The position numbers and the translations under genes are program-made. The notes below the pieces were generated by a model. That model made no database searches, was not told the DNA's origin, and saw only the letters and a program-made list of their open reading frames with translations. A DNA stretch of 64,000 nucleotides, taken from contig VGID01000017.1 of the NCBI GenBank assembly GCA_016868035.1, positions 430 through 64,429 of the forward strand, given 5' to 3'. The DNA comes from Betaproteobacteria bacterium (GTDB taxonomy: Bacteria; Pseudomonadota; Gammaproteobacteria; Burkholderiales; SG8-41). This document shows, piece after piece, positions 42,817-55,694 of this stretch; the stretch's first letter is position 1; each line of letters starts with the position of its first letter.

Positions 42817-43959
42817 ATGCCGCAATCCGTTGTCACGTCGGCCGGGGTTCCTCGTGTCGTTGTCGGCGCCGGCGCGGACGGCTCGGCGCAGGTAAAGCTA
42901 TCGGGTCCCTGGAACCTGGCGGGGCTCGAAAAGCATCTGTCCGATATCGCGCCGCTGCTCGCCAAACAGGCGGGCGCGAACCGGCACTGGGATCTCAGCG
43001 GGGTGAGCACGCTCGATCACGCCGGGGCGCTGCTGCTGTGGCGCGCGTGGGGCAGGAAACGTGCGCCGCGGCTCACGTTGAAGCCCGAGCACGAGACGCT
43101 GTTCGTTACGCTTGCCGCGGCGCGGCACGAGCCGCTGCCGGGGCTCCCGCGCGACTGGCGTGCGTCGACGGCCGCCGTGGGCCGGAAGATCCTGGCGCTG
43201 CTCGAACATTTGTTCGCGGCCACGGTGCTGCTCGGCCACGTGGTCATCGACGCGATGATCTTGGTGCGCCATCCGGGCCGCATCCCGTGGCGCGAGATTT
43301 CCGCGAACATCTACCGCACCGGCGCGCAGGCGCTCGGTATCACTGCGCTGGTGGGGTTTCTGGTGGGGATCGTGCTTTCGTACCTTTCCGCGCAGCAGCT
43401 CAAGATTTTCGGCGCCGACGTCTACATCGTGAACCTGCTCGGCGTCTCCATCGTCCGCGAGCTCGGGCCGGTGCTCGCGGCCGTGCTGATCGCGGGACGC
43501 TCGGGATCGGCGATCACCGCGCAGCTCGGAGTGATGCGGGTGACCGAGGAAATCGATGCGATGACGGTGATGGGCATTCCCCACACGGTGCGGCTCATCC
43601 TGCCCAAGATGGTGGCGCTTGCCGTCACGCTGCCGCTGATCGTGCTGTGGACGGGCGCGCTTGCGCTGCTCGGTGGCATGATCGCGGCGAACATCGAGCT
43701 CGACATCAGCTACCACTTTTTCCTGTCACGCCTGCCCGACGTGGTGCCGATCTCCAACCTCTGGCTGGGGTTGGGCAAGAGCGTGGTATTCGGTATCCTG
43801 ATCGCGCTCATCGCCTGCCATTTCGGCCTGCGCATCGAGCCCAACACGGAGAGCCTCGGCGCGGGCACCACGGAGTCCGTGGTCAGCGCGATTACGATGG
43901 TGATCATCGTGGACGCGATATTCGCAGTGATGTTTTCACACATAGGAATTTTCCGGTGA
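42817..43959 (+). CDS. MlaE-family ABC transporter permease with N-terminal STAS-like domain
   Basis: The N-terminal ~110 aa are STAS-like (VKLSGPWNLAGLEKHL..WDLSGVSTLDHAGALLL). Then YLSAQQLKIFGADVYIVNLLGVSIVRELGPVLAAVLIAGRSGSAITAQLGVMRVTEEIDAM. Confidence 0.85.
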   Translation: MPQSVVTSAGVPRVVVGAGADGSAQVKLSGPWNLAGLEKHLSDIAPLLAKQAGANRHWDLSGVSTLDHAGALLLWRAWGRKRAPRLTLKPEHETLFVTLAAARHEPLPGLPRDWRASTAAVGRKILALLEHLFAATVLLGHVVIDAMILVRHPGRIPWREISANIYRTGAQALGITALVGFLVGIVLSYLSAQQLKIFGADVYIVNLLGVSIVRELGPVLAAVLIAGRSGSAITAQLGVMRVTEEIDAMTVMGIPHTVRLILPKMVALAVTLPLIVLWTGALALLGGMIAANIELDISYHFFLSRLPDVVPISNLWLGLGKSVVFGILIALIACHFGLRIEPNTESLGAGTTESVVSAITMVIIVDAIFAVMFSHIGIFR

Positions 43960-44777
43960 CCGAACAGGTCGTTGAAGTGAACGGGCTGTGGACGCGGTTC
44001 GGCAGGCATGCCGTGCATCGTGGCATCGATGTGTCGGTGGCGCGCGGCGACGTGCTGTCGCTGGTCGGCGGTTCGGGCAGCGGCAAGACGACGCTGTTGC
44101 GGCAGATGATGGGGCTCGAGCGGCCCTCGCGGGGATCGGTGCGCGTGCTCGGGGTGGATCTCCACGACTGCGACCCGCTCGTCCTGCGCCAGCTCAGGAA
44201 CCGGTGGGGCGTGCTGTTCCAGGAAGGGGCGCTGTTCTCCGCGCTCACCGTATTCGAGAATGTGGCGCTTCCGCTGGAGGAGCTGCACGCGCTCGACGAG
44301 GAGCTGATCCGCGAGCTCGTGATGATGAAGCTCGACATGGTGGGGATCGAGGCGCGCCACGCCCGCAAGGTCCCGGCCGAGCTTTCGGGCGGGATGGTAA
44401 AGCGCGTGGCGCTCGCGCGCTCGCTCGCGCTCGAGCCGGAGCTCCTGTTTCTAGACGAGCCGACGGCGGGGCTCGACCCCGACCGCAGCGAGAGCTTCGT
44501 GCGGCTGATCGAGCAGCTGCGGCACGAGCTGAACCTCACCGTGGTGATGGTCACGCACGACCTCGACACGCTGGTCGCGCTGTCGAACCGCATCGCGGTG
44601 CTGTTCGACGGAAGACTGGTGGTGGTCGGAACCCTGCGCGAAGTCGTGCACAGCCAGCACCCTTTCATCGTGAACTTCTTCCTGGGCGAGCGCGGCCGCC
44701 GCGCGCTCGAAGCGGTGTGGGATACTCTGGGCATGGGGGAAGCCGGCATGCGGCCCGCAACGCAGGGGGGCGCCTGA
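43956..44777 (+). CDS. ABC transporter ATP-binding protein (MlaF-like)
   Basis: GTGA overlap with the upstream gene. Walker A GGSGSGKTT, signature LSGGMVKRVALARSL, Walker B LLFLDEPTAGLDP. Confidence 0.9.
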   Translation: MTEQVVEVNGLWTRFGRHAVHRGIDVSVARGDVLSLVGGSGSGKTTLLRQMMGLERPSRGSVRVLGVDLHDCDPLVLRQLRNRWGVLFQEGALFSALTVFENVALPLEELHALDEELIRELVMMKLDMVGIEARHARKVPAELSGGMVKRVALARSLALEPELLFLDEPTAGLDPDRSESFVRLIEQLRHELNLTVVMVTHDLDTLVALSNRIAVLFDGRLVVVGTLREVVHSQHPFIVNFFLGERGRRALEAVWDTLGMGEAGMRPATQGGA

Positions 44778-44781
44778 GCGT

Positions 44782-45723
44782 ATGGAAAACAAGGCCTACG
44801 CCTTCGCGGCAGGGGTATTCACGCTGCTGCTCGTCGCCGGCGTGGTGTTCGCGGCGATGTGGCTCACCGGCGAGACCGAGGCGCGCTACCGCTACGTGCT
44901 CGAAACACGCCACCCGGTCACGGGGCTCACCCTGCAGGCGCCTGTACGCTACCGCGGGGTCGACGTGGGCAAGGTCGAGGGAATCGACTTCAACGAAAGG
45001 GATCCGCGTACCATTCTGATCCGCGTGGCGGTGCGCACCGAAACGCCGGTCACGAAGGGCACCTACGCGCAGCTCGCCTCGCAGGGCGTGACTGGATTGG
45101 CTTTCGTGCTGCTGGACGATGACGGGTCGAGCCCCGAGCGCCTCCTTCCCGCACGTGATGCACGCATACCGGTACGACAGTCCTTTTTCGACGAGCTGTC
45201 CGGCGCGGGCACGAGCCTCATGTCCGATGTGAACGAGGCGGTGCGGCGCCTGAACGCGCTGCTCGGGGAGAAGAACCAGGCCCAGCTGCTGCGCACGCTC
45301 GCCACGGTGGACGCGGCGAGCACGCGCATCGGCGAGATCGCGGTCAAGGTGCAGCCCGCCCTGCAGGGCGTGGCGCCGCTCACGGACGACGCGCGCAAGG
45401 CGCTGGCCGCGGCCGAAACGCTGTTCGCGAACATGAACCGGCTCACCCACGAGCTCGCGCAGCGCCTGGACGCGCTCGAGCGCATCGCGAAGAGCGCGGA
45501 AGAGTTCGGGAGCGCGGCGCGTTCCGTTACGGGCGCGATGACGGCCGACACGCTGCCCCGCATCAATGCGGTGGTCGATGAGCTCGCGCGCAGCGCGCGC
45601 AACCTGGACCGCCTGCTCACCGAGTTGAACGAGCACCCGGCGAGTCTCGTATTCGGCAGGCCCCAGGCGCCGCCCGGTCCGGGTGAGGCCGGCTTCGATC
45701 CGAAACGGGGGGGTGGCAAGTGA
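44782..45723 (+). CDS. MCE/MlaD-family substrate-binding membrane protein
   Basis: N-terminal TM helix, then GLTLQAPVRYRGVDVGKVEGIDFN..ILIRVAV...PVTKGTYAQLASQGVTGLAFVLL (MCE domain) and a helical C-terminal extension. Confidence 0.85.
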   Translation: MENKAYAFAAGVFTLLLVAGVVFAAMWLTGETEARYRYVLETRHPVTGLTLQAPVRYRGVDVGKVEGIDFNERDPRTILIRVAVRTETPVTKGTYAQLASQGVTGLAFVLLDDDGSSPERLLPARDARIPVRQSFFDELSGAGTSLMSDVNEAVRRLNALLGEKNQAQLLRTLATVDAASTRIGEIAVKVQPALQGVAPLTDDARKALAAAETLFANMNRLTHELAQRLDALERIAKSAEEFGSAARSVTGAMTADTLPRINAVVDELARSARNLDRLLTELNEHPASLVFGRPQAPPGPGEAGFDPKRGGGK

Positions 45724-46376
45724 ACGCGACACGAACGATCCATATGGCGGGCGCGGGGCTGCTCGCGGGGCTGCTCGCGCTCGCGGGCTGCGCGCTGGGG
45801 CCGCAGGCGCGCGAAGCGCCGGTCGTCTATGACCTCGGCCCGCCACGCGGTTATCCGGCGGTCAATCCGCCGCTTGCGGCGCCTTTGTTGATCCCGGTCG
45901 TGGCCGCGCCCGCCTGGCTGGAAACGAACGGCATCGTGTATCGCCTTGCGTTTCAGGACCCGGCGCGCACCCAGTTCTACTCCGCGGCCCGTTGGGCGGC
46001 GCCGCCCGCGGCTCTGCTCACGCAGCAGTTGCGCGGCCGCTTCGCGGCGGCTTCCGCGAGCGGGGTCGTGACCGGTCACGGCGGCGCCCGCGCCGATTAT
46101 GCCCTGCATGTCGAGCTGGAGGACTTCAGCCAGACGTTCGATACGCCCGGCGCGAGCCGCGTCGTGGTGAGGGCGCGGGCGACTCTGGTGGACCTGGCCA
46201 CCCGCACGCTGGTCGCGCAACGCGGTTTTGGCGTCGAGCGCGCGGCTCCCAGCGCCGATGCGCGCGGCGCGGTCGCCGCGTTCGGGGAAGCGAGCGACGA
46301 ACTTGCGCGGGGCCTGCTCGCCTGGACCGGCGAACAGATTTCCGGCGCGCGCCGCAAGCCCGGGGCGGGCAGATAG
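45720..46376 (+). CDS. ABC-transport auxiliary lipoprotein (PqiC/DUF330-like)
   Basis: GTG start overlapping the upstream stop. Lipobox LLALAGC. Size and position after an MCE gene fit the PqiC-like family. Confidence 0.65.
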   Translation: MNATRTIHMAGAGLLAGLLALAGCALGPQAREAPVVYDLGPPRGYPAVNPPLAAPLLIPVVAAPAWLETNGIVYRLAFQDPARTQFYSAARWAAPPAALLTQQLRGRFAAASASGVVTGHGGARADYALHVELEDFSQTFDTPGASRVVVRARATLVDLATRTLVAQRGFGVERAAPSADARGAVAAFGEASDELARGLLAWTGEQISGARRKPGAGR

Positions 46377-46385
46377 GAGACGAGC

Positions 46386-46724
46386 GTGAGCACTATTTTT
46401 GGCAAGATCATCCGACGCGAAATCCCCGCCGACATCGTCTACGAGGACGAGCAGTGCCTCGCGTTTCGAGACATCAATCCGCAGGCGCCCACGCACGTGC
46501 TGATCATCCCCAGGAAGGAGATCTCCACGCTCGGAGACGCCGGTGTCGGGGACCGCGATCTTCTCGGACACCTCGTGCTCGCGGCCGCGAAAATCGCGTG
46601 CCAGCTCGGGGTGGAAAAAGCGTTCCGGCTGGTCATCAACAACGGCGCGGAGGCGGGACAGAGCGTGTTCCACCTGCACCTGCACCTGCTCGCGGGCCGC
46701 CCCTTCCGCTGGCCGCCGGGCTAG
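46386..46724 (+). CDS. HIT-family (histidine triad, HinT-like) nucleotide hydrolase
   Basis: IFGKIIRREIPADIVYEDEQCLAFRDINPQAPTHVLIIPRK and the triad HLHLHLL. Confidence 0.9.
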   Translation: MSTIFGKIIRREIPADIVYEDEQCLAFRDINPQAPTHVLIIPRKEISTLGDAGVGDRDLLGHLVLAAAKIACQLGVEKAFRLVINNGAEAGQSVFHLHLHLLAGRPFRWPPG

Positions 46725-48847
46725 GCCCTGTCCGATTTCCTGGGGCCTGGCTCGAGCCGGCGCGTCAGTTCGCGCGGGGGCTGCGGCTTCCCGAACAGGT
46801 AGCCCTGCGCTTCGTGGCAGCCTTTCGCCCGGAGAAAGGCGAGCTGTGCGGGCGTCTCCACGCCCTCGGCGACCACTCTCTTGCCCAGGGTATGCCCCAG
46901 GCCGATGATGGCTTCGCAGATCGCATCGGCGTTGGAATCGCGCCCGATGTGGTCGACGAACGACTTGTCGATCTTGATCGAATCCACGTCCAGCTTGCGC
47001 AGGTAGCTCAGGGAGGAATAGCCCGTGCCGAAGTCGTCGATCGAGATTTGCAAGCCGAGCCCGCGCAGCGCGGTGAGTATCGAGATGCTGAGCTCGACAT
47101 CGTCCATCGCCACCGATTCGGTGATCTCGAGCTCGAGCAGCCCGGGCCCGATATCGCTGCGCGCGAGCGCTCCGCGCACGTAATCCAGCAGCCGCGGATC
47201 CCGGAACTGCTGGGCGGAGAGGTTCACCGCCACGCGCGGCGGCGCGTAGCCCTCGTCGGACCACAGCCGGACCTGGCGGCACGCTTCGCGCAGCGCCCAT
47301 TCCCCGATCGGGCTGATCAAGCCCGTCGTTTCGGCCACCGGGATGAAGCGCACGGGTGAGACCTGTCCCCAGTGCGGGTGCGGCCAGCGGATCAGCGCTT
47401 CGCAGCCAGCGAGGGTCTCGCTGCTTCCGGCGATCGCCACCTTCGGCTGGTAGACGAGATGGAACGCGCGCTGCTCGACCGCCGTGCGCAGCTCCTGTTC
47501 GATCTCCTGGCGCTCCCGCGCCTCTTCGGCCATCGCGGGCGAGAAGAACTGGTAGCGCACTCGAGTGTCCCGCCGGATCCGGCTCAGGGCAAGCTCGGCT
47601 TCGTGGAGCATCTGCTGCGGCGTCGAGCATCCGGTGGCGGTGGTCGTGATCCCGATCCGGCCTTTCAACCGGACTTCCTTGTCTTCCACAGTTATCGGCT
47701 CCGCAATGCGCGCGAGCAGGCGCTCGGCCTGGCGTGCCGAATCGACCGCGCTGCGCACCTTGGCCCGCGCTACCCCGAATTCGTCGCCTTCGAGGCGCGC
47801 GACGAATTCCTCGCGGCCCATCGCCTCGCCGAGACGCCGGGCAATCTCCGTGAGGACCTTGTCTCCGGCGGCCTGCCCGAGTCCGTCATTCACGGCACGG
47901 AACCCGGAAAGATTGAGCACGGTGACTTCGATGCTCTCGCCGCGCTCGCAAGTGCCCGACAGGACCTGCTGCAGGTGCTCGAGGAAGAACTTGCGGTTGG
48001 GCAGTCCGGTCAGCGCGTCGTGGTGGGCGAGGAACCGCGCGTGCTCCTCGGCGCGCAGGCGGTCGGTGCGCTTGCTTTCGGCGACCCGCGTGAGCATTTC
48101 GTCGTGGGCGGAGAACAGCTCCCCGAGCTCGTTACCCGGGCGCGACCCGATCCGGTGGCGATCAGCCACGTCGGGGTCGGCGGCCGCCGCGACCATGCTG
48201 CCCCGCAGCCGGAGGATCGGGGCGAGCACCCCGCGGTAGACCACGATCATGGTTCCGGTGGTGACCACGGCGACGATCAACAGCACGAGCCCGGCGATGC
48301 GCAGCACGAACGCCCGCAACTCGGCGCCGACGTGGGAGCTGTCCAGGCGTGCGAGGAGGAGCCGCGGCTCGCCGGACATGTCCGCACGCCATGCAATGTC
48401 GTAGCGGTTCCCGTCGCCGCTGCGGTGTCTGAGCCTATTGCCGGGATCCTGCAACATCCGGTCGAGCCCGACATCGAGCGATGCCAGCTCGCCGGCACTC
48501 ACCAGTTCCGAGCCATCGGGGTGCCGCACCGCGAGTCCCACGAACAGGGGCTGCTCGACCAGCTTCCGCACCTGGTGCGCCAGCAGGTCCGGGCGTTGCG
48601 CATCGTCGAGGGCAAGCGCTGCGCGCACGGCCGCCGTTGCCTTGTCTTCAAGCCGCTGCAGCTCGGTATGCTCGAAGTTGAGCGCCGACGGGACCAGGAT
48701 GATGCTTTCGATGATGAGAATCAGCAGAAATACCGAGTAGGTAACGGACCGGCAGAGGCGGCATGCGAGCAGGCGCTGCCCCAGCGTGCCGTGCCCGGCC
48801 CGCGACGGCTCTTCCGGCCCGATCATCGATTGCGTGCTCTCACTCAA
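46721..48847 (-). CDS. Sensor protein: TM, periplasmic domain, HAMP, GGDEF, EAL
   Basis: Two TM segments flank a ~150-aa loop. HAMP (VYRGVLAPILRLRGSM), GGDEF-like (HDALTGLPNRKFF..LEGDEFGVA) and EAL (AFHLVYQPKV..EITES..DDFGTGYSSLSYLRKLDVDSIKIDKSF). Confidence 0.85.
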   Translation of the reverse strand: MSESTQSMIGPEEPSRAGHGTLGQRLLACRLCRSVTYSVFLLILIIESIILVPSALNFEHTELQRLEDKATAAVRAALALDDAQRPDLLAHQVRKLVEQPLFVGLAVRHPDGSELVSAGELASLDVGLDRMLQDPGNRLRHRSGDGNRYDIAWRADMSGEPRLLLARLDSSHVGAELRAFVLRIAGLVLLIVAVVTTGTMIVVYRGVLAPILRLRGSMVAAAADPDVADRHRIGSRPGNELGELFSAHDEMLTRVAESKRTDRLRAEEHARFLAHHDALTGLPNRKFFLEHLQQVLSGTCERGESIEVTVLNLSGFRAVNDGLGQAAGDKVLTEIARRLGEAMGREEFVARLEGDEFGVARAKVRSAVDSARQAERLLARIAEPITVEDKEVRLKGRIGITTTATGCSTPQQMLHEAELALSRIRRDTRVRYQFFSPAMAEEARERQEIEQELRTAVEQRAFHLVYQPKVAIAGSSETLAGCEALIRWPHPHWGQVSPVRFIPVAETTGLISPIGEWALREACRQVRLWSDEGYAPPRVAVNLSAQQFRDPRLLDYVRGALARSDIGPGLLELEITESVAMDDVELSISILTALRGLGLQISIDDFGTGYSSLSYLRKLDVDSIKIDKSFVDHIGRDSNADAICEAIIGLGHTLGKRVVAEGVETPAQLAFLRAKGCHEAQGYLFGKPQPPRELTRRLEPGPRKSDRA

Positions 48848-49215
48848 ATGAACTCTCGTGGTCCACGTTCTGCCGTGTCCAAAAAAGTATACGCTTTGTC
48901 ACCGGTTGCAGGTATGCCGTATGCCACTATACGAAATGTGTTTGCGCCGATCGCGCGCAAGACGGTTCTGACGATTCGGGATCGCGCGGGCCGCACCTGC
49001 GATGGTCGTGTGAAGAGCTTGTAAGATTATGGGCGATTTGCCGGTCTTATCAATGTGGCGACCGGATCGGCCGAGGAGGCCGCGCGCAGAACGACGTTTC
49101 CGGCGGAGTTTTGCGCGTACGCTTCGGATACCGGGCGCCGGTGCATAGTTCTGCCTGTCGGGCGAAGTCCGGAGAGGAGTCCGCCTGGTTTTTTTCTTCA
49201 ACAAGGAGGTTCCGA

Positions 49216-50007
49216 ATGCAACTTGAACTCAAGCCCGTAGCCCGATCGCTCGCTTCGGCCGGTCTGCTGACGTTGGCACTGGGGATGCCCTTCGCGGCGG
49301 CCGGCGCATGTCGGCCCTGTGCCCCGCGGCCAGCACCGAAATCGAGCGCCAATCCATGCGCTGCGAAGAACCCGTGCGCGCCGCGGAACCCGTGTGCCGC
49401 GAAGCGCAATCCGTGCGCGGCGAAGAATCCCTGTGCGCCCAGGAACCCCTGTGCCGCAAAGGGTGCTTGCGGGGCCGGCAAGGTCGATCGGAAGCTCGCG
49501 ACGCGGCCGAAGGATTACAAGCCCTACAAGGCCGATCGCGCGGTCCTGGTCAAGGAAGGCGAGGTGATGTGGAAGGACACCAAGCTCAGCACCAACGGCC
49601 TGTCCTGCAACAGCTGCCACGTGAACAATGCGGGGTTTGCCGCCACGTTCGCGAAACCGTACCCGCATTACGTGGCGATGGCGCAGCAGCAAGCCGGGGT
49701 GAAGCAGGTGCACCTCGACGAGATGGTGCAGTTCTGCATGATCGTTCCGATGGCGGCCAAGCCTCTGGCGTGGGACTCGCGCCAGCTCGCCGCGCTGACC
49801 GCGTACACCGCGGACGTCCAGAAGAAGTTCAAGCCGAATCCATGTGCGGCGAAGAAGGGCGGCCCGTGCGGCCCGTGCGCTCCGAAACGCAATCCGTGCG
49901 CGGCGAAGAATCCGTGCGCGGCGAAGAACCCGTGCGCGGCGAAGAACCCGTGCGCGGCCAAGCGCAATCCGTGCGCGCCCCGGAATCCTTGCGCCCCGAG
50001 GAAGTAG
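49216..50007 (+). CDS. Secreted monoheme c-type cytochrome flanked by N- and C-terminal (N-P-C-A-A/P-K/R)n Cys-rich repeat tails
   Basis: RBS aaggagg then ATG 49216. Signal peptide MQLELKPVARSLASAGLLTLALGMPFAAAGA. Repeat tails at aa 31-88 and 207-263 (9 Cys each). The core carries CNSCH (nt 49606-49620) in the context WKDTKLSTNGLSCNSCH and a distal MIVPM. Confidence 0.7.
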   Translation: MQLELKPVARSLASAGLLTLALGMPFAAAGACRPCAPRPAPKSSANPCAAKNPCAPRNPCAAKRNPCAAKNPCAPRNPCAAKGACGAGKVDRKLATRPKDYKPYKADRAVLVKEGEVMWKDTKLSTNGLSCNSCHVNNAGFAATFAKPYPHYVAMAQQQAGVKQVHLDEMVQFCMIVPMAAKPLAWDSRQLAALTAYTADVQKKFKPNPCAAKKGGPCGPCAPKRNPCAAKNPCAAKNPCAAKNPCAAKRNPCAPRNPCAPRK

Positions 50008-50370
50008 CGCGATTCGTGATACTGGGCCGCGCGGGAAACGGAGATTCGCGCGATTCCGCGCGGGGAGGAAGATAGATTGCGGCGGCGTGGGCCGCCTTGT
50101 TCCCGTCGGGCATGAAACCAAGGTCCGGCTCGCGGCCACCCGGCGAGCCAGCCGGTGCGCCGAGCCGGGCCGCTTGCGACCGGCAGCGGGGTCGCGTATG
50201 GTGGGGAGCAACCGGATTTTCGGAAGCGCCTGCTTCGTGCGAGACTTTCCGCGCCGCAGCGCGTTTTTGGCAGCCTCGATCTGGGAGCAAACGGAAAGTG
50301 GCTATACGGGCAGTGTGGTTCCGTAACCGGGGCTGCATCGCACCCATCGTCTACAAAACGGAGGATCAAC

Positions 50371-50736
50371 ATGCAGTTCCAACTGAGACCCATGGTTCGT
50401 TCACTGATATCGACCGGCATCGTCACGCTCGCTCTGGGCGTGCCCCACGCGCTGGCACAGGCGCCCTGTCGCCCATGTGCGGCGCGGGCGAAATCGGGGG
50501 CCAATCCGTGCGCGGCGAAAAGCCCGTGCGCGCCGAAGAAGAACCCGTGTGCGGCGAAGAAGGCAAGCCCGTGCGCGGCCAAGAAGAAAGCCCCGTGCGG
50601 TCCGTGCGCGGCGAAGAAGGCAAGCCCGTGCGCAGCCCAGAAGAAAGCGAGCCCGTGCGCGCCGAAGAAGAATCCGTGCGCGGCAAAGAAGCCCAATCCG
50701 TGCGCGGCGAAAAATCCCTGCGCGGCGAAGAAGTAG
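50371..50736 (+). CDS. Secreted 121-aa protein consisting almost only of x-P-C-A-A/P-K(K) repeats (paralog of the cytochrome's tails)
   Basis: RBS ggagg then ATG 50371. The signal peptide MQFQLRPMVRSLISTGIVTLALGVPHALAQA is clearly paralogous to that of 49216. The mature part has 13 Cys, every one preceded by Pro, and is Lys-rich with no His, Met or aromatic residues. Confidence 0.6.
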   Translation: MQFQLRPMVRSLISTGIVTLALGVPHALAQAPCRPCAARAKSGANPCAAKSPCAPKKNPCAAKKASPCAAKKKAPCGPCAAKKASPCAAQKKASPCAPKKNPCAAKKPNPCAAKNPCAAKK

Positions 50737-50740
50737 CCGC

Positions 50741-51673
50741 ATGAGCGCCGTGCCGCCGCGCGCAGGGAGTGGCGCCGGCAGCACGGCGCGCCAGACCCGG
50801 TCCGGGGCCGCATCGAGAGCCCCCGGCGCCGGAAGCCAGGCGCGCGAAACCCGGCGCGCAGCGAAGCTCGCGAATGCAGCGATGAAATCCGCGCCCGCCA
50901 TCCCGGCGCAGCAGGTGGAAGGGCCGGAAGCATTGCTTGCGGCCTCACCGCAGCTCGCCCCTCCCGCGCTCGCCGCGCTGGGCAAGCGGCGGTTGCGTGC
51001 GATGCTCGCCGAAGGCCTCGACATCCTCGAGTGCTTCCGCGTGCTCAAGAAGGGCGGTCTCAACATCGTGGGCGAAGTGCTGCGGGGGCAGGGCACGTTT
51101 TACGAGTACACGCATTACCCGCAGGACGACGTCTACGACCGGGACACCCGCTCGCAGTATTACTATCATGCCCATCGCGGGATGGCTGGAGAAAACGGCC
51201 ATTTCCACACCTTCATCCGGTTGCCGCGCGAGCCGCGTCCGGCCTCCGCAGCGCATGATGCGGCGGACGACCCGGACGCCGCGGACGAGGACGAAGCGGT
51301 TCACCTGGTGGCGATCTCGATGGACGCGTACGGCTGGCCGATCGGACTGTTCGCGACCAACCGCTGGGTGACGGGAGGCGGTTGGCTTGCCGCCGAGGAG
51401 ACCATCGGGCTGCTGCCCGAGTTCTGCGTCGACCACGCGGATCCGTCATGGCCGGTCAACCGCTGCCTGAGCGCCATGTTCGGCTTGTTCCGGCCGCACA
51501 TGGAGATGCTGCTCCGCCACCGCGATGGCGTGATTGCCGCGCGCGCGGCGGCCCTGCCCGGGAGCGACGTGCTCGAGGACCGCGAGCTTGAGATCACCGG
51601 CTATCTGCCGGTCTCGGTCGAAGAGACGGTCGCGGAGTTGCGCGCGCTTCTGGGCAAGGATGGACGCGGATGA
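50741..51673 (+). CDS. Conserved hypothetical protein with a His/Tyr-rich motif (possibly a DUF6969-type family; unverified)
   Basis: ATG 50741 lies 4 nt after the previous stop. The N-terminal region is low complexity with no signal peptide, then LNIVGEVLRGQGTFYEYTHYPQDDVYDRDTRSQYYYHAHRGMAGENGHFHTFIR. Start uncertain (alternatives include MKSAP.. and MLAEG..). Confidence 0.55.
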   Translation: MSAVPPRAGSGAGSTARQTRSGAASRAPGAGSQARETRRAAKLANAAMKSAPAIPAQQVEGPEALLAASPQLAPPALAALGKRRLRAMLAEGLDILECFRVLKKGGLNIVGEVLRGQGTFYEYTHYPQDDVYDRDTRSQYYYHAHRGMAGENGHFHTFIRLPREPRPASAAHDAADDPDAADEDEAVHLVAISMDAYGWPIGLFATNRWVTGGGWLAAEETIGLLPEFCVDHADPSWPVNRCLSAMFGLFRPHMEMLLRHRDGVIAARAAALPGSDVLEDRELEITGYLPVSVEETVAELRALLGKDGRG

Positions 51674-52152
51674 TCGCCTCGCGCCCGCGGACACGATGGG
51701 CATGGCTCGGAGCAGCGTTCGCGCTGTGCGCGCTGCTCCCGGCGCTCGCGCAGGCGCCGCTGCCGGGGACGCGGACGATCGCAACCAAGCACTCCTTCGA
51801 GGCTTTGGTCGCACGCGTGGAGCAGGCGGTCGATAAGCACGGCATGGCGGTGGTTGCCCACGCGAGCGCGAGCTCCGGGGCCGCATCACGCGGCATCAAG
51901 ATCCCCGGCAATGCGGTGATCATGGTGTTCCGCAACGACTACGCCGTGCGCATGCTGCAGGCGAGCGTGCCGGCGGGCATCGAGGCGCCGCTGCGAATCC
52001 ACGTGACCGAAACTCCCGGCGGCCGCGCCACGCTGACCTATCGGGAGCCGAGCGCGGTGTTCGCGCCCTACGCAAGCCCGGCGCTCGATGCCGTGGCAAA
52101 GGAGCTGGATGTCGTATTCCGCAACATCGTCCGCGACGCGGCCGGCGGCTGA
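51670..52152 (+). CDS. DUF302 domain protein with signal peptide
   Basis: ATGA overlap with the upstream gene. Signal peptide ..LCALLPALAQA. FEALVARVEQAVDKHGMAVVAH...GNAVIMVFRNDYAVRML..EAPLRIHV is typical of DUF302. Confidence 0.8.
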   Translation: MIASRPRTRWAWLGAAFALCALLPALAQAPLPGTRTIATKHSFEALVARVEQAVDKHGMAVVAHASASSGAASRGIKIPGNAVIMVFRNDYAVRMLQASVPAGIEAPLRIHVTETPGGRATLTYREPSAVFAPYASPALDAVAKELDVVFRNIVRDAAGG

Positions 52153-52165
52153 GCGCGCCGGTGGT

Positions 52166-53308
52166 ATGGCGCCGGCGCGCGCGCAGCGCGGCGTGCTGGC
52201 GGCGGCGCTCGCGCTCGCGGTCGTGATCCTCGTGCTGATCACGGGCGCGGGCTGGCGCATGCCCGTGTTGTTCGCATTGGGCATCGCGCTCGGACTCACG
52301 CTCTATCTCACCGGGTTCGGTTTTACCTCGTCGTACCGCGAATTGCTTGTGCATCGCAACGTCGCTGCGGTGAAGGCGCAGCTGGTGATGGTGGCGCTCG
52401 CTACCGTGCTGTTTGCGCCGGTGCTCGCGGGCGGCTCGGTCTTCGGGCAACCGGTGGCAGGAGCGCTGGCCCCCGCGGGCGTGCCGGTGGCGATCGGTGC
52501 CTTTCTCTTCGGGCTGGGCATGCAACTCGGCGGCGGCTGCGGCTCGGGAACGCTCTACACCGCGGGCGGGGGCAGTCCGCGCATGCTGGTGGTGCTCGCC
52601 GCGTTCTGCGCGGGCGGCTTCTGGGCGAGCCTGCACATGCAGTGGTGGGACCGCCTGCCCGCAGCGCCCGATGTCGCGCTGTCCGACCTGCTCGGCTGGC
52701 CGGGCGCGGTCGCGCTGCAGCTCGGCGTGCTGGCGGTGTTGTGGCTTGCGCTCGGCCGGGTGGCGCGTCGCGGGGCGCGTTCGACCCAGGACGTGCCCTC
52801 GTTCCTGGCGCAGCGCCATTTCTGGCTGGCGGGCGCGATCGCACTCGCGCTGCTGAACTTTTCCGTGCTGCTTGCCGCGGGCCACCCGTGGACCATCACC
52901 TGGGCGTTCACTCTCTGGGGCGCCAAATCGGCGCGCGGGCTGGGATGGGATCCGGAGTCGGCGCCGTTCTGGAGCGGCGACTTCCAGCGCACGGCGCTCG
53001 AAGGCGGCGTGCTGCAGGACGTCACCTCGGTGATGGACATCGGCATCATGATCGGCGCGCTGGCGGCGGCGGGTCTCGCGGCGCGTTTCCGCCCGCAATT
53101 CACGGTGCCGATGCGATCGCTGCTCGCCGCGGTCGTTGGCGGGCTGCTGATGGGTTATGGGGCGCGCGTCGCCTTCGGATGCAACATCGGCGCGTTTTTC
53201 TCGGGTGTGGCATCCACCAGCCTGCACGGGTGGATGTGGATCTTCGCGGCGCTCGCGGGCACCTGGTTCGGAATAAGGATGAGGCCATGGTTCGGACTGA
53301 AAAATTGA
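52166..53308 (+). CDS. YeeE/YedE-family membrane protein (putative thiosulfate/sulfur-compound transporter)
   Basis: ATG 52166 within ORF 52088-53308. Two half-repeats carry the Cys motifs LGGGCGSGTLY and AFGCNIGAFF that are characteristic of YeeE/YedE. Confidence 0.8.
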   Translation: MAPARAQRGVLAAALALAVVILVLITGAGWRMPVLFALGIALGLTLYLTGFGFTSSYRELLVHRNVAAVKAQLVMVALATVLFAPVLAGGSVFGQPVAGALAPAGVPVAIGAFLFGLGMQLGGGCGSGTLYTAGGGSPRMLVVLAAFCAGGFWASLHMQWWDRLPAAPDVALSDLLGWPGAVALQLGVLAVLWLALGRVARRGARSTQDVPSFLAQRHFWLAGAIALALLNFSVLLAAGHPWTITWAFTLWGAKSARGLGWDPESAPFWSGDFQRTALEGGVLQDVTSVMDIGIMIGALAAAGLAARFRPQFTVPMRSLLAAVVGGLLMGYGARVAFGCNIGAFFSGVASTSLHGWMWIFAALAGTWFGIRMRPWFGLKN

Positions 53309-54432
53309 TCGGCAGGGCACGCGTCGCGATGGCGGCGGCTTTGCTCGCGTTTGCGGCGGATGCGGCTGCGAACCCGCAGTGGCGCGGGGAGTGGCCGCGG
53401 ACGGACTTCTCCAAACGTACCGTTGCGCTCGAGGAGATCCAGTCGGGCGGCCCGCCCAAGGACGGCATACCCGCGGTGGACCAGCCACGTTTCGTGACGC
53501 AGGCCGAGGCGGCGCGCTGGCTCGACCCGCGCGAGCCCGTGATCGTCTTCGAGCACGCAGGCGACGTGCGCGCGTATCCGCTGCAGATCCTGACGTTCCA
53601 CGAGATCGTGAACGACACGGTCGGCGGAATTCCGGTGGCGGTCACGTTCTGCCCGCTCTGCAACGCCTCCATCGTCTTCGACCGGCGGATGCAGGGAGCC
53701 GTGCTCGATTTCGGAACGACGGGCAAGCTGCGCAAGAGCGACCTCGTGATGTACGATCGGCAGACCGAGAGCTGGTGGCAGCAGTTCACCGGCCAGGGCA
53801 TCGTCGGCCGGCATGCCGGCACGGTGCTCACTCAGGTGCCTTCGACCATCGTCGCGTTCGATGAATTTCGCAAGGCCTATCCGAAGGCGCAAGTGCTCTC
53901 GCGGCAGACCGGCTTCAGCCGTCCGTACGGCAGGAATCCCTACCGCGGCTACGACCGCGTGGGCGATCATCCCTTCCTGTTCTTCGATCCGGTGGACCCG
54001 CGCCTGCCCGCGATGGAGCGGGTGCTGGGCGTCACGAGCGGGGGCAAGACGCGCATCTATCCGTTCGCGGTGCTCTCCGGGCAACCGGTGGTGAACGACG
54101 AGGTGGGCGGCGAGCCGATCGCCGTGTTCAGCCAGGAAGGGATGCTCTCCGTGCTCGACGCGGAGGTGATACGGGACTCACGGCGCATCCCCGCGGCGGC
54201 CGCCTACAGCCGCGCGGTGCGCGGCAAGGTGCTCTCCTTCGAGCGCCGCGACCACCGTATCGTGGATCGCGAGACCGGCTCGCAATGGGACATCTTCGGC
54301 CGCGCGACCGCGGGCCCATTGCAGGGCGCGAGGCTCAAACCGGCGGACAGCGGCGTGCATTTCGCGTTCGCATGGCTCGCGTTCCATCCCGGGTCCGAAA
54401 TTTACGGCAGCACGGGGGTGGCGCGACGCTAG
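53287..54432 (+). CDS. DUF3179 domain protein, secreted, with CPLC motif
   Basis: ATG 53287 overlaps yeeE by 22 nt. Signal peptide ..AAALLAFAADAAA. GGPPKDGIPAVDQPRF, AYPLQILTFHEIVND and VAVTFCPLCNASIVFDR are DUF3179 hallmarks. Confidence 0.8.
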   Translation: MVRTEKLIGRARVAMAAALLAFAADAAANPQWRGEWPRTDFSKRTVALEEIQSGGPPKDGIPAVDQPRFVTQAEAARWLDPREPVIVFEHAGDVRAYPLQILTFHEIVNDTVGGIPVAVTFCPLCNASIVFDRRMQGAVLDFGTTGKLRKSDLVMYDRQTESWWQQFTGQGIVGRHAGTVLTQVPSTIVAFDEFRKAYPKAQVLSRQTGFSRPYGRNPYRGYDRVGDHPFLFFDPVDPRLPAMERVLGVTSGGKTRIYPFAVLSGQPVVNDEVGGEPIAVFSQEGMLSVLDAEVIRDSRRIPAAAAYSRAVRGKVLSFERRDHRIVDRETGSQWDIFGRATAGPLQGARLKPADSGVHFAFAWLAFHPGSEIYGSTGVARR

Positions 54433-54444
54433 CGCCGGTAAGTT

Positions 54445-54987
54445 TTGGCCCGCAACGCCGGTCTTACTATTTCGATGCTGCTGGAGAACAAACGCTCGCG
54501 ATTCGAAAGCCTGGTGAAGGCATTCTCGGCGGAGCTGTTTCGCTACGCTCACTGGCTGTGCCGCGACCGTTTCCTTGCAGAGGATCTGGTGCAGGAGACG
54601 TTCATGCGCGCGTGGCACGCCTGGGCAGGGTTGAGGGATGACAAGGCCGCGCGAAGCTGGCTCTACACGATACTGCGCAACGAGCATGCGCGGCTCTACG
54701 AGCGCAAGCGCCTCGATATCGCCGCCGGCTTCGATCTGGATGCCATCGCGGATCGCACCGCGGGACTTGCCGATCAGCGGCTGGAGATGCGCGAGGCCCT
54801 CGAATCCCTGCCCGGCAGCTACCGCGAGCCGTTGATATTGCAGGTGCTCGGCGGTTTCAGTTGCGCTGAGATCGCAGGGATCATGGATTTGAGCATGGGC
54901 GCGGTCATGACGCGCCTCACCCGCGCGCGGCTTGCATTGCGCAGGCTGCCGGGATGGGAACGCACACGCAAGGTTGGGAAGCGATGA
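54445..54987 (+). CDS. ECF-type RNA polymerase sigma-70 family factor
   Basis: Region 2 (AEDLVQETFMRAWHAW..SWLYTILRNE) and region 4 (YREPLILQVLGGFSCAEIAGIMDLSMGAVMTRLTRAR). The start may be ATG 54475. Confidence 0.85.
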   Translation: MARNAGLTISMLLENKRSRFESLVKAFSAELFRYAHWLCRDRFLAEDLVQETFMRAWHAWAGLRDDKAARSWLYTILRNEHARLYERKRLDIAAGFDLDAIADRTAGLADQRLEMREALESLPGSYREPLILQVLGGFSCAEIAGIMDLSMGAVMTRLTRARLALRRLPGWERTRKVGKR

Positions 54988-55694
54988 CTTGTTTCGAATT
55001 TCGAAGGCTGATACTCGCGAGTCCGCGCGAGCGCAGCGCCGCCCAGGAGCAGCACAAGGCGGCGTGTGCCGCGTGCGCCGCGCTCGCGCGCGAGATGGAC
55101 AATTTCGAGTCGCGCATCCATGAGGCCGCGCTCGTGCCGATGCCCGAAGCGCTCGCGGAGCGGGTGCTGCTGCGAGGGCAAGTCGAGCGGCAACGCAGCA
55201 GGCTGCGCGTGTGGGCGTTCGCGGCCACCGTGATGCTCGCGCTGGGTCTCGGGCTCGTGCTGGTGCGCGACGAGACGGCGCCGCCGGATGGCGTGCGGAG
55301 CGCGGCTGCGCTGGGCGAAGCGCATCCCGCCGTGGCGGCGATATCGTACGTGATTGACGAGGAGCCGCGCCTGCTCGCGGAGAACCGATTTTTCGATCCG
55401 GCAGCGATGCGCCAGGCACTGGCGGATCTCGGCCTGAATCTTCCGGCAGAAAACGTGGCGGTGCGCTATCTGGGCAAGTGCCCGGTGCCCGGAGGCAGCG
55501 GAGAGCACGTCGTGCTCACGACGCCGTTCGGCCAGGTCTCGCTCATCCTTGTTCCGGACCTGCCGTTCGGCCCGCGCGTGCTGGTGTGGCACCGCGACCG
55601 GGCGGCGCTCGCGAGAGCGCAGCGCGCCGGCGGTTACATTCTCGTCGGCGATACGGTCGCGACCGTCACGCAGCTCGAAAAGCTGCTGCTGTAG
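54984..55694 (+). CDS. Membrane anti-sigma factor (DUF3379-like) with HxxxCxxC zinc/redox motif
   Basis: ATGA overlap with the sigma gene. N-terminus MTCFEFRRLILASPRERSAAQEQHKAACAACAALAREM contains H-x3-C-x2-C. A single TM helix (VWAFAATVMLALGLGLVLV) is followed by a periplasmic C-terminal domain. Confidence 0.7.
   Translation: MTCFEFRRLILASPRERSAAQEQHKAACAACAALAREMDNFESRIHEAALVPMPEALAERVLLRGQVERQRSRLRVWAFAATVMLALGLGLVLVRDETAPPDGVRSAAALGEAHPAVAAISYVIDEEPRLLAENRFFDPAAMRQALADLGLNLPAENVAVRYLGKCPVPGGSGEHVVLTTPFGQVSLILVPDLPFGPRVLVWHRDRAALARAQRAGGYILVGDTVATVTQLEKLLL

Follow-up and report, generated by a model that had tools for sequence, protein, structure and literature searches.

A 64,000-nucleotide stretch of contig VGID01000017.1 (Betaproteobacteria bacterium, assembly GCA_016868035.1), hereafter the window, encodes a predicted periplasmic monoheme cytochrome c of the SoxA/TsdA fold, which is flanked on both sides by tails that are selected arrays of cysteines and is encoded in a conserved operon probably controlled by an extracytoplasmic function (ECF) sigma factor. 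This description of the protein and its operon is well supported. Its function is inferred, and we tentatively favor the reading that it constitutes an ECF-controlled periplasmic thiol array fused to a His/Cys-ligated heme, which serves in the response to thiophilic metals and metalloids or to other thiol-reactive stress.

The sequence-only reading of this DNA had described a core with a single CNSCH site between two tails of nine cysteines each. This layout was confirmed: the 263-residue product consists of a signal peptide, a core of 117 residues and two tails of 58 residues. The N-terminus is Sec-like as judged by eye (Lys6 and Arg10, a hydrophobic stretch and the sequence AAAGA). The proposal of a c-type cytochrome that carries a single heme site and is predicted to be secreted is supported. 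Of its 21 cysteines, three belong to the core, namely Cys131 and Cys134 of the only CxxCH motif of the protein (CNSCH, residues 131-135) and Cys174. The remaining cysteines occupy positions 32, 35, 48, 54, 60, 67, 73, 79 and 85 in the N tail and 210, 218, 221, 228, 234, 240, 246, 253 and 259 in the C tail, with a spacing that is mostly 6 and in some cases 7, 3, 8 or 13. The two tails contain 13 NPCA[AP][KR] units as well as variants of them; Asp and Glu are absent, and the isoelectric points (pI) are 9.7-9.9.

At the DNA level, Tandem Repeats Finder detected 18-bp arrays at positions 49351-49430 and 49873-50003. Comparison of the codons among the 13 units revealed 186 synonymous and 72 non-synonymous differences, the latter being all Ala/Pro or Lys/Arg exchanges, and the units use two distinct codons for Asn, four for Pro, two for Cys and three for Ala. 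Since the differences are mainly synonymous, it is the peptide and not the DNA that is kept, and the selection on the peptide claimed earlier is borne out. The identical 263-residue protein is called on seven contigs, and the three contigs shown come from three independent samples or assemblies, which makes an assembly artefact in the repeat copy number less likely, although all of these assemblies are short-read ones. The pattern lies far beyond chance, and the Cys-tailed architecture recurs in 1157 database clusters found by a word-indexed search and in at least 486 carriers found by a scan of species genomes. In other reading frames and on the complementary strand, the GC-rich 18-bp repeats also give rise to long stop-free open reading frames (ORFs), encoding for instance 'FFAAHG' or 'RARRR' repeats; the ORFs at 49198..50211 (-), 49668..50948 (-), 49308..50075 (+) and 50477.. 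(+) are spurious products of this kind and not genes.

The core was assigned to the SoxA/TsdA cytochrome c domain family PF21342, which matches residues 114-200 with 38.4 bits against a gathering cut-off of 27; a precomputed match to the same family is also present on most homologues. An AlphaFold model built on 114 homologues has a predicted local distance difference test (pLDDT) score above 90 for residues 90-205. When the AlphaFold model was compared with known structures, TsdA and SoxA were the best matches, as TsdA, TsdBA and SoxA account for the top 11 matches of a Foldseek search against the PDB (probability 0.94-1.0), and the core matches 1h31_A with a probability of 1.0 and a root-mean-square deviation of 3.2 Å over 97 columns. 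The E-values of these matches are modest (~6e-3) because the model includes 146 non-core residues, that is, the signal peptide and both tails.

The homologues are named 'cytochrome c peroxidase' or 'c-type cytochrome' in public records, and the heme domain had initially been likened to both peroxidase and SoxA types. The second half of this comparison stands, while the first half does not. The resemblance to the di-heme peroxidase/MauG family PF03150 is a local similarity at the heme-binding helix (LSxNGxxSCxxCH), where residues 115-149 match the family with 21.2 bits, below the cut-off of 25.6 and over only 35 residues. A bacterial di-heme cytochrome c peroxidase, as the database names imply, has two CxxCH motifs and ~300 residues, whereas all 114 close homologues have one such motif and the core, with 117 residues, is one third of that size; in addition, Foldseek places peroxidases and MauG far below TsdA and SoxA. 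The peroxidase explanation is thus already refuted on its defining features, and we assign it a negligible probability.

The position of the heme ligands was approached by profile alignment. A profile of 25 cores aligns to residues 51-142 of Rhodovulum SoxA, placing C131, C134 and H135 on SoxA C76, C79 and H80, and C174, located ~39 residues after the proximal histidine, on SoxA C114, which we take to be the cysteine ligand of heme 1 in the SoxAX structure. C174 is invariant in the 114 close homologues, and among the 50%-identity representatives with a complete core the sole replacement tallied at this position is Met, another heme ligand. The same representatives show free variation at M155 and M179 and occasional variation at H151. 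From the conservation of C174 and its alignment with SoxA C114, a His135/Cys174 ligation is predicted; most likely, the heme is bound by His135 and the Cys174 thiolate and would be a low-potential, reactive His/Cys heme. Published potentials of such hemes are -185 mV for TsdA and -400 mV or lower for SoxAX (PMC6879331).

The protein shares with SoxA and TsdA the fold class, a single CxxCH on the same helix, a YP.YV segment and the predicted periplasmic location. It differs from them in having one heme domain, Cys-repeat tails and an ECF stress operon instead of a sox locus. TsdA binds thiosulfate through Arg109, Arg119 and Ser127 around the ligand cysteine (PMC4423706). As judged on sequence offsets only, neither Arg nor Ser is found at the corresponding positions around C174 (E169-M170...P178), and the second half of the core contains no invariant Arg in the 114 close homologues. 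The SoxA equivalog model of NCBIfam, TIGR04484, gives 34.1 bits against a cut-off of 110. Because the substrate residues are unmatched at these offsets, the cytochrome contains no second heme and the operon contains no partner cytochrome, the core is a member of the SoxA/TsdA fold family and not a SoxA or TsdA orthologue.

The carriers of the tailed architecture are mostly Betaproteobacteria (Burkholderiales, Rhodocyclaceae, Gallionella, Sideroxydans and Nitrosomonadales), with further carriers among Rokubacteria, Methylomirabilota, several Gammaproteobacteria and Methylocystis; the nearest core relatives (~80% identity) are found in groundwater betaproteobacterial metagenome-assembled genomes. 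Cultured carriers include Pelomicrobium methylotrophicum, Zobellella aerophila, Marinobacter antarcticus, Sedimenticola hydrogenitrophicus and Denitromonas iodatirespirans. Among the 114 close homologues, the N tail has 3-23 cysteines (median 7) and the C tail 0-18 (median 6.5), the latter being missing in only three proteins. The spacers in these tails are 3, 5, 6 or 7 residues long, and the constant element is N-P-C, with Pro at position -1 in 1691 cases and Asn at position -2 in 1612. For the protein of the window, AlphaFold predicts both tails to be disordered (pLDDT ~45-55).

For a view of more diverse relatives, an exhaustive profile search with the core yielded 511 clusters at 50% identity, of which 109 full-length representatives were classed. 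PC-repeat tails on one or both sides are present in 60 of the 109. A few representatives have other Cys repeats, KCGAC (P0362) or GCGP (P0371, P0347), and in a few the Cys tails are replaced by Cys-free acidic or His-rich repeats (P0365, P0366, P0384); many consist of a bare signal peptide and core of 139-167 residues in total. The survey therefore characterizes the core as an autonomous module and the tails as accessory. The occurrence of KCGAC and GCGP repeats in other members implies that the thiol array is kept and not its exact sequence; dense thiols have been retained, or have arisen anew, with more than one kind of repeat sequence. The acidic repeats are of the EGEAEAKGE type, long and in some cases combined with HHRRHH runs, which suggests that different ion-binding tails were swapped onto one heme core.

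NPC tails were also found outside the cytochromes: they are attached to TlpA-type thioredoxins and to a LysM protein, they flank a small beta domain on either side, and they form small secreted proteins of their own. Proteins P0175, P0211 (Gloeobacter morelensis), P0158, P0163, P0181 and P0197 carry such NPCAAK-type tails; the tail behaves as a mobile module. The architecture regarded as unusual in the sequence-only reading was found to be conserved and unstudied. The tails are not exclusive to the cytochrome, as they also occur on other proteins, and they are absent or replaced in distant core relatives. The NPC-flanked small beta domain bears the name 'CusF' in JGI records, but only sub-threshold matches to CusF_Ec and DUF5666 were obtained, so it is not usable as evidence for copper. 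The heme-regulatory 'Cys-Pro' motifs were likewise considered and rejected, the tail repeat being Pro-Cys and not Cys-Pro.

According to another explanation, the tails are passive, i.e., flexible basic spacers or anchors for the envelope, a mineral or disulfide partners, on an ordinary electron-carrier cytochrome. The predicted disorder of the tails agrees with this explanation, as do the many core relatives with no tails or non-Cys repeats, the LysM domain of one repeat protein, the C-terminal Lys in 73% of the small repeat proteins encoded next to the cytochromes (see below) and the presence of the iron oxidizers Gallionella and Sideroxydans among the carriers. On the other hand, what every unit conserves is a Cys preceded by Pro at -1 and Asn at -2, a high density of Cys is retained across three different repeat sequences, and the DUF6969 neighbor and the co-regulated thioredoxin-CcdA pair (both described below) point to thiol chemistry. 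Only 42% of the cytochromes end with Lys or Arg, so peptidoglycan anchoring via a C-terminal Lys is not general and was rejected. Altogether, we regard passive tails as quite improbable.

In the window, the cytochrome gene leads a conserved operon (Table 1). It is followed by a gene for a small protein that is made of repeats, contains no heme domain and carries a signal peptide paralogous to that of the cytochrome (58% identity between the signal peptide of the cytochrome and the N-terminus of the adjoining protein). The public call for this gene, 50475..50744, is in the wrong frame and has an 89-residue product; the real frame is preceded by the GGAGG site and encodes both the signal peptide and the repeats. 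In view of such wrong-frame calls, repeat-only proteins are probably under-counted in the databases. The downstream genes encode DUF6969, DUF302, YeeE/YedE-family and DUF3179 proteins, the ECF sigma factor and a DUF3379 anti-sigma factor.

The conservation of this operon was assessed in 85 loci, comprising the window, four loci that were looked up and 80 from the genome scan, where all ORFs were probed with the window proteins and with representatives of recurrent neighbors. DUF6969 was found in 62 of the 85 loci and in 76% of the 51 loci with enough flank. The small NPC-repeat protein is present in 43 loci, usually adjoining the cytochrome gene on the same strand, and the other operon members in 40 (YeeE), 37 (DUF302), 28 (DUF3179), 28 (ECF sigma) and 22 (DUF3379). 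The recurrent neighbors that are not encoded in the operon of the window include a C92-type permuted papain (25 loci), an unnamed 163-residue periplasmic protein (24), CcdA/DsbD_TM (21), the mercuric reductase MerA (19, within 7 kb), an AhpD-like protein (17), ArsS (16), a MerR-family regulator (13), ArsM (6), and merT and merP (7 each). MerA is genuine, with 825 bits against an NCBIfam cut-off of 600 and a C-terminal SCCAG; the matches to the merT and merP probes are supported by their location beside MerA and MerR. The Zobellella copy of the cytochrome is located beside copA/copB/cusRS, the Marinobacter copy adjoins a rhodanese gene, and a tail-less core relative lies inside a cluster of mer, thioredoxin, DsbD, redoxin and YHS genes.

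The 163-residue protein is secreted, contains three cysteines and is encoded between DUF6969 and DUF302 in its 24 loci (L008, L009, L011-L013 and others, e.g. L024 9054..9545); it is absent from the window. A cupredoxin identity was considered for it and dropped, as the sole family match is faint, and the protein was left unnamed.

The putative control of the operon by the ECF pair was studied through promoter motifs. An ECF-type promoter-like motif upstream of the cytochrome gene is the sole match in the 64-kb window, where 0.05 matches are expected by chance. Across the loci the motif has the form TGTAAG(G/A)WWT-N12-13-CGGTCTAA or CGACTAA, and it is present upstream of the cytochrome gene, or of the preceding repeat gene, in 50 of the 85 loci. 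It was also detected upstream of the ECF sigma gene in 11 loci, which suggests autoregulation; autoregulation is usual for ECF sigma factors. Further instances precede the periplasmic thioredoxin-CcdA pair in 17 loci, arsS or arsM in seven and the C92-like gene in three. In the Gallionella locus L038, a single intergenic region lies between the cytochrome gene and the divergently oriented genes for the thioredoxin (WCGTC) and CcdA. The anti-sigma HxxxCxxC motif was found within the first 80 residues of 14 of the 22 homologous ORFs; the other eight seem to be longest-ORF calls that are spuriously extended at the N-terminus, which would place the motif beyond residue 80. These observations point to the cytochrome gene as a member of the regulon of this ECF pair, the sigma factor of which would read the motif, and the motif positions suggest that the regulon may supply reductant to the periplasm. 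As listed by the motif (loci L008-L087), the candidate regulon includes the genes for the cytochrome, the repeat protein, the thioredoxin-CcdA pair and the sigma factor, as well as arsS/arsM. A second promoter before the small repeat gene, the pair CGTAAC...CGTCTA, is not claimed, since its spacing is 3 nt too long.

Table 1. Features of the cytochrome locus in the window (positions counted from the first nucleotide of the window)
Feature	Position	Strand	Description
ECF-type promoter-like motif TGTAAG-N16-CGGTCT	49020..49047	+	196 nt before the cytochrome start codon
Ribosome-binding site AAGGAGG	49203..49209	+	read directly; 7 nt before the cytochrome start
Cytochrome gene	49216..50007	+	intact ORF without stops, 263 aa; Cys-tailed monoheme cytochrome c
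Signal peptide of the cytochrome, aa 1-30	49216..49305	+	read by eye from the sequence; cleavage probably after AAA or AGA
N tail, aa 31-88 (58 aa)	49306..49479	+	9 Cys, NPCAAK/NPCAPR units, no Asp/Glu, pI 9.7
Core, aa 89-205 (117 aa)	49480..49830	+	SoxA/TsdA-type cytochrome c; Pfam, AlphaFold, Foldseek
Heme attachment motif CNSCH (C131, C134, H135)	49606..49620	+	invariant in 114 homologues; sole CxxCH
Cys174 codon, predicted distal (sixth) heme ligand	49735..49737	+	alignment and conservation
C tail, aa 206-263 (58 aa)	49831..50004	+	9 Cys, NPCAAK/NPCAPR units, pI 9.9
Small NPC-repeat protein gene	50371..50736	+	121 aa, xPCAAK repeats only, 13 Cys, no heme domain; GGAGG site
DUF6969 gene	50741..51673	+	PF22308, E = 1.8e-73; start uncertain, domain from ~50996
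DUF302 protein with signal peptide	51670..52152	+	family scan
YeeE/YedE-family (Sulf_transp) membrane transporter	52088..53308	+	PF04143, E = 1e-61; NCBIfam family-level only
DUF3179 protein with signal peptide	53287..54432	+	family scan
ECF sigma factor	54445..54987	+	family scan
DUF3379 membrane anti-sigma	54954..55694	+	N-terminal C-x(n)-H-x3-C-x2-C zinc-finger (ZAS-like) motif

Three further observations concern the surroundings of the cytochrome genes. A gene for a GGDEF-EAL protein (46721..48847, minus strand) lies divergently upstream of the cytochrome gene in the window, and its homologues are near the cytochrome in 16 of the 85 loci; a link of the locus to cyclic di-GMP signaling is possible. 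In both gammaproteobacterial loci, those of Zobellella (L004) and Marinobacter (L005), a 730-residue fusion of a DedA/VTT membrane domain with a MerA-like pyridine-nucleotide disulfide reductase is encoded near the cytochrome gene. Further upstream in the window, the region 42817..46376 (+) holds a HIT-family gene and an operon for lipid transport of the Mla type, which encodes MlaE, MlaD, an ABC ATPase and an auxiliary protein; both the gene and the operon appear unrelated to the cytochrome.

The reading that we favor proposes the following sequence of events. Stress by a thiol-reactive agent would release the sigma factor from the zinc-finger anti-sigma factor. The likeliest agents are soft metals and metalloids, for instance Hg(II), Cu(I) and As(III); Se and Te are further possibilities. 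The periplasm would then be filled with high-capacity thiolate arrays, provided by the cytochrome tails and the small repeat protein, which would capture the ions in a metallothionein-like manner, each disordered basic tail presumably displaying nine free cysteines. In many genomes, the co-regulated thioredoxin-CcdA pathway would keep these thiols reduced. The tails would have a redox-active counterpart in the His/Cys heme, which would exchange electrons with them in either direction or form and cleave S-S and S-metal bonds. We favor this reading because of the ECF/ZAS control together with the co-regulated thioredoxin-CcdA pair; because mer and ars genes, and in Zobellella cop/cus, are linked to the cytochrome gene repeatedly and in different arrangements; because the tail-less relative sits in the mer-containing cluster mentioned above; and because of a design analogy with the bufferins and oxazolins (PMC12452194, PMC11626156).

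Several points weigh against a role in metal(loid) or thiol stress. The main weakness is that a metal sponge needs no heme, for which this reading does not account, and single cysteines spaced six apart are not a classical metal site of the CxxC or CxC type. Neither mer nor ars nor ccdA genes occur in the 64-kb window, and the counts of linked genes are not independent events, given the mobility of mer operons and the phylogenetic relatedness among the 85 loci. About 45% of the diverse core relatives have no Cys tails, and the core must therefore have a function of its own. The assignment of Cys174 as a ligand is drawn from alignment and conservation. No paper mentioning the NPC repeat or DUF6969 was found in the literature searched. 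Finally, proteins of the YeeE family import thiosulfate, sulfur and selenium (PMC11582611), with which a sulfur reading fits equally well.

Such a sulfur reading makes the cytochrome a sulfur carrier: the His/Cys heme would oxidatively join thiosulfate, sulfide or polysulfide to the cysteines of the tails and of the small repeat protein, which would act as multi-site SoxY-like arms, and YeeE would move sulfur species across the inner membrane. It draws on the SoxA/TsdA fold with its aligned Cys ligand and on the chemistry of the SoxA family, whose cysteine-ligated cytochromes join thiosulfate to a thiolate and whose His/Cys hemes act by chemistry on the ligand cysteine (PMC4423706). It would explain both the heme and the transporter conserved in the operon; the rhodanese gene beside the Marinobacter copy is in line with it, and the basic residue next to each Cys would stabilize anionic S-adducts. 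The failure of the SoxA equivalog model and the unmatched TsdA residues noted above speak against it, as do the lack of a second heme and of a SoxX-like partner in the operon, and the best SoxA sequence match is to the N-terminal heme-1 domain and not to the catalytic heme-2 domain. No sox-like gene was recognized in the neighbor families of at least seven of the 85 loci by inspection and by Pfam/NCBIfam scans of some representatives, a survey that included no sox probe, and ECF/ZAS control and linkage to mer and ars would be unexpected for an energy-yielding sulfur pathway. We therefore consider the sulfur carrier an unlikely explanation. An analogy with SoxAX acting on the SoxY arm had been drawn from the sequence, and the genomic context does not support sulfur oxidation: this is not a sox locus but an ECF-sigma stress operon with links to thioredoxin-CcdA, mer, ars and YeeE. 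Intramolecular transfer of electrons or sulfur between the heme and the tails, as suggested at the same time, is possible. In common with SoxYZ, there is an exposed Cys on a flexible peptide, to which a SoxA-type heme could transfer its product. The single Cys of SoxY, however, lies in a GGCGG motif at the C-terminus of a folded domain, whereas here 18 Cys are arranged in N-P-C units on two disordered cytochrome tails with no GGCGG.

Among the neighbors, DUF6969 shows a close link to the Cys-rich tails. This family has 4349 members, all of them unnamed. The protein has no signal peptide as judged by eye, and its invariant residues include His38, His56, His58, His67, His69, His145, Cys11 and several Asp/Glu. 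Its AlphaFold model is confident (pLDDT 89.9), and there was no match in the PDB by sequence or by Foldseek (best probability 0.13), nor any Pfam or NCBIfam match besides its own family. In Gallionella and Sideroxydans loci where the small repeat protein is separated from the cytochrome, DUF6969 stays with the small repeat protein. Its gene also follows cytochromes with KCGAC and GCGP tails, and it is absent beside all three tail-less or acidic-tail relatives whose contigs were long enough, two further contigs having ended too early. Judging from this small sample, DUF6969 appears to go with the Cys-rich tails and not with the heme core.

These features raise the alternative that the tails are modified. 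Before Sec export, DUF6969 would act on the Cys repeats in the cytoplasm, either as a metalloenzyme or as a dedicated chaperone, much as MNIO enzymes act on bufferins and oxazolins, and the mature tails would bear modified cysteines in place of plain thiols. Such modification, compatible with both the metal and the sulfur readings, would fit the absence of a signal peptide, the invariant residues, the position of the gene directly downstream of a Cys-repeat gene in most loci and its distribution among the differently tailed relatives, and it has a precedent in Sec-exported Cys-repeat precursors that are modified in the cytoplasm (PMC12452194). Set against this are the lack of similarity of DUF6969 to any known enzyme, fold or other Pfam family, the lack of a visible recognition-element partner and the very small sample of non-Cys relatives; moreover, a metal sensor or carrier in the cytoplasm would account for the co-location just as well. 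We rate tail modification as doubtful. A bolder version, to which we likewise give a low probability, holds that DUF6969 would be a new kind of cytoplasmic His-rich metalloenzyme modifying the cysteines of the repeats before export, and that the mature cytochrome would be a protein-borne metallophore, with modified chelating tails wired to a His/Cys heme under ECF control and unrelated to the MNIO/bufferin machinery.

Bufferins and oxazolins (Buf_EGKCG; gig operon of Cupriavidus metallidurans) are Sec-exported, Cys-rich, copper-binding ribosomally synthesized and post-translationally modified peptides (RiPPs). They share with the present system a signal peptide, repeated Cys motifs, a periplasmic destination and a linked cytoplasmic protein, which is a likeness of design and not homology, as well as a link to ECF sigma/anti-sigma pairs and, putatively here, to metal stress (PMC12452194, PMC11626156, PMC13492112). 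The repeat here is NPCAAK and not EGKCG, it is fused to a heme domain, and the linked protein is DUF6969. Neither the window nor the conserved neighbor families examined in the 85 loci showed a gene for MNIO (DUF692), DUF2063 or DoxX, and the scanned operon genes all matched other families (DUF6969, DUF302, Sulf_transp, DUF3379, DUF3179 and sigma). Two further parallels were discarded. The gig/RpoQ operon of C. metallidurans, considered as a possible combination of a cytochrome with YeeE, is a bufferin operon with DUF2282, MNIO, DUF2063 and DoxX genes and thus a different system, and pearlins, considered as a Cys-repeat RiPP class, are C-terminal thia-amino-acid products and not repeats.

Metallothioneins and periplasmic soft-metal binders (SmtA-type, MerP and CusF) resemble the tails in their very high Cys content, small residues, lack of aromatics and linkage to mer or cop genes. 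In contrast to them, the tails contain no CxC or CxxC clusters except for one CxxC per tail, and they are regularly spaced at six residues, proline-rich, disordered and fused to a heme domain, with no sequence homology detected. The heme domain and secreted Cys-rich binders are both of known kinds, whereas the fusion with an N-P-C module, the operon and DUF6969 are undescribed in the papers found. In the literature searched, no paper describing the heme-tail fusion, the N-P-C module or the operon with its promoter motif was found, and searches on DUF3379 and on combinations of DUF302, YeeE, mercury and ECF gave nothing relevant.

His/Cys-ligated c-type hemes are rare, and most of the understood ones, SoxAX and TsdA, perform chemistry on the ligand cysteine. 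Here, a single-domain putative His/Cys heme is combined with 18 tail cysteines in hundreds of species, spanning iron oxidizers, nitrifiers, denitrifiers, Rokubacteria and Methylomirabilota from groundwater and lakes, in a family that is wrongly annotated as peroxidase. If the tails buffer periplasmic Hg, Cu, As or Se, they would represent an unrecognized and widespread layer of metal(loid) tolerance, which would be relevant to the cycling of mercury and arsenic in aquifers. If the heme acts on the tails, SoxA-type catalysis would be extended to a built-in substrate. DUF6969, with a confident model of no known fold, six invariant histidines and a tight link to Cys-rich tails whatever their sequence, is a specific protein in which new chemistry may be found. 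All of these readings can be tested directly, given the promoter motif and the cultured carriers.

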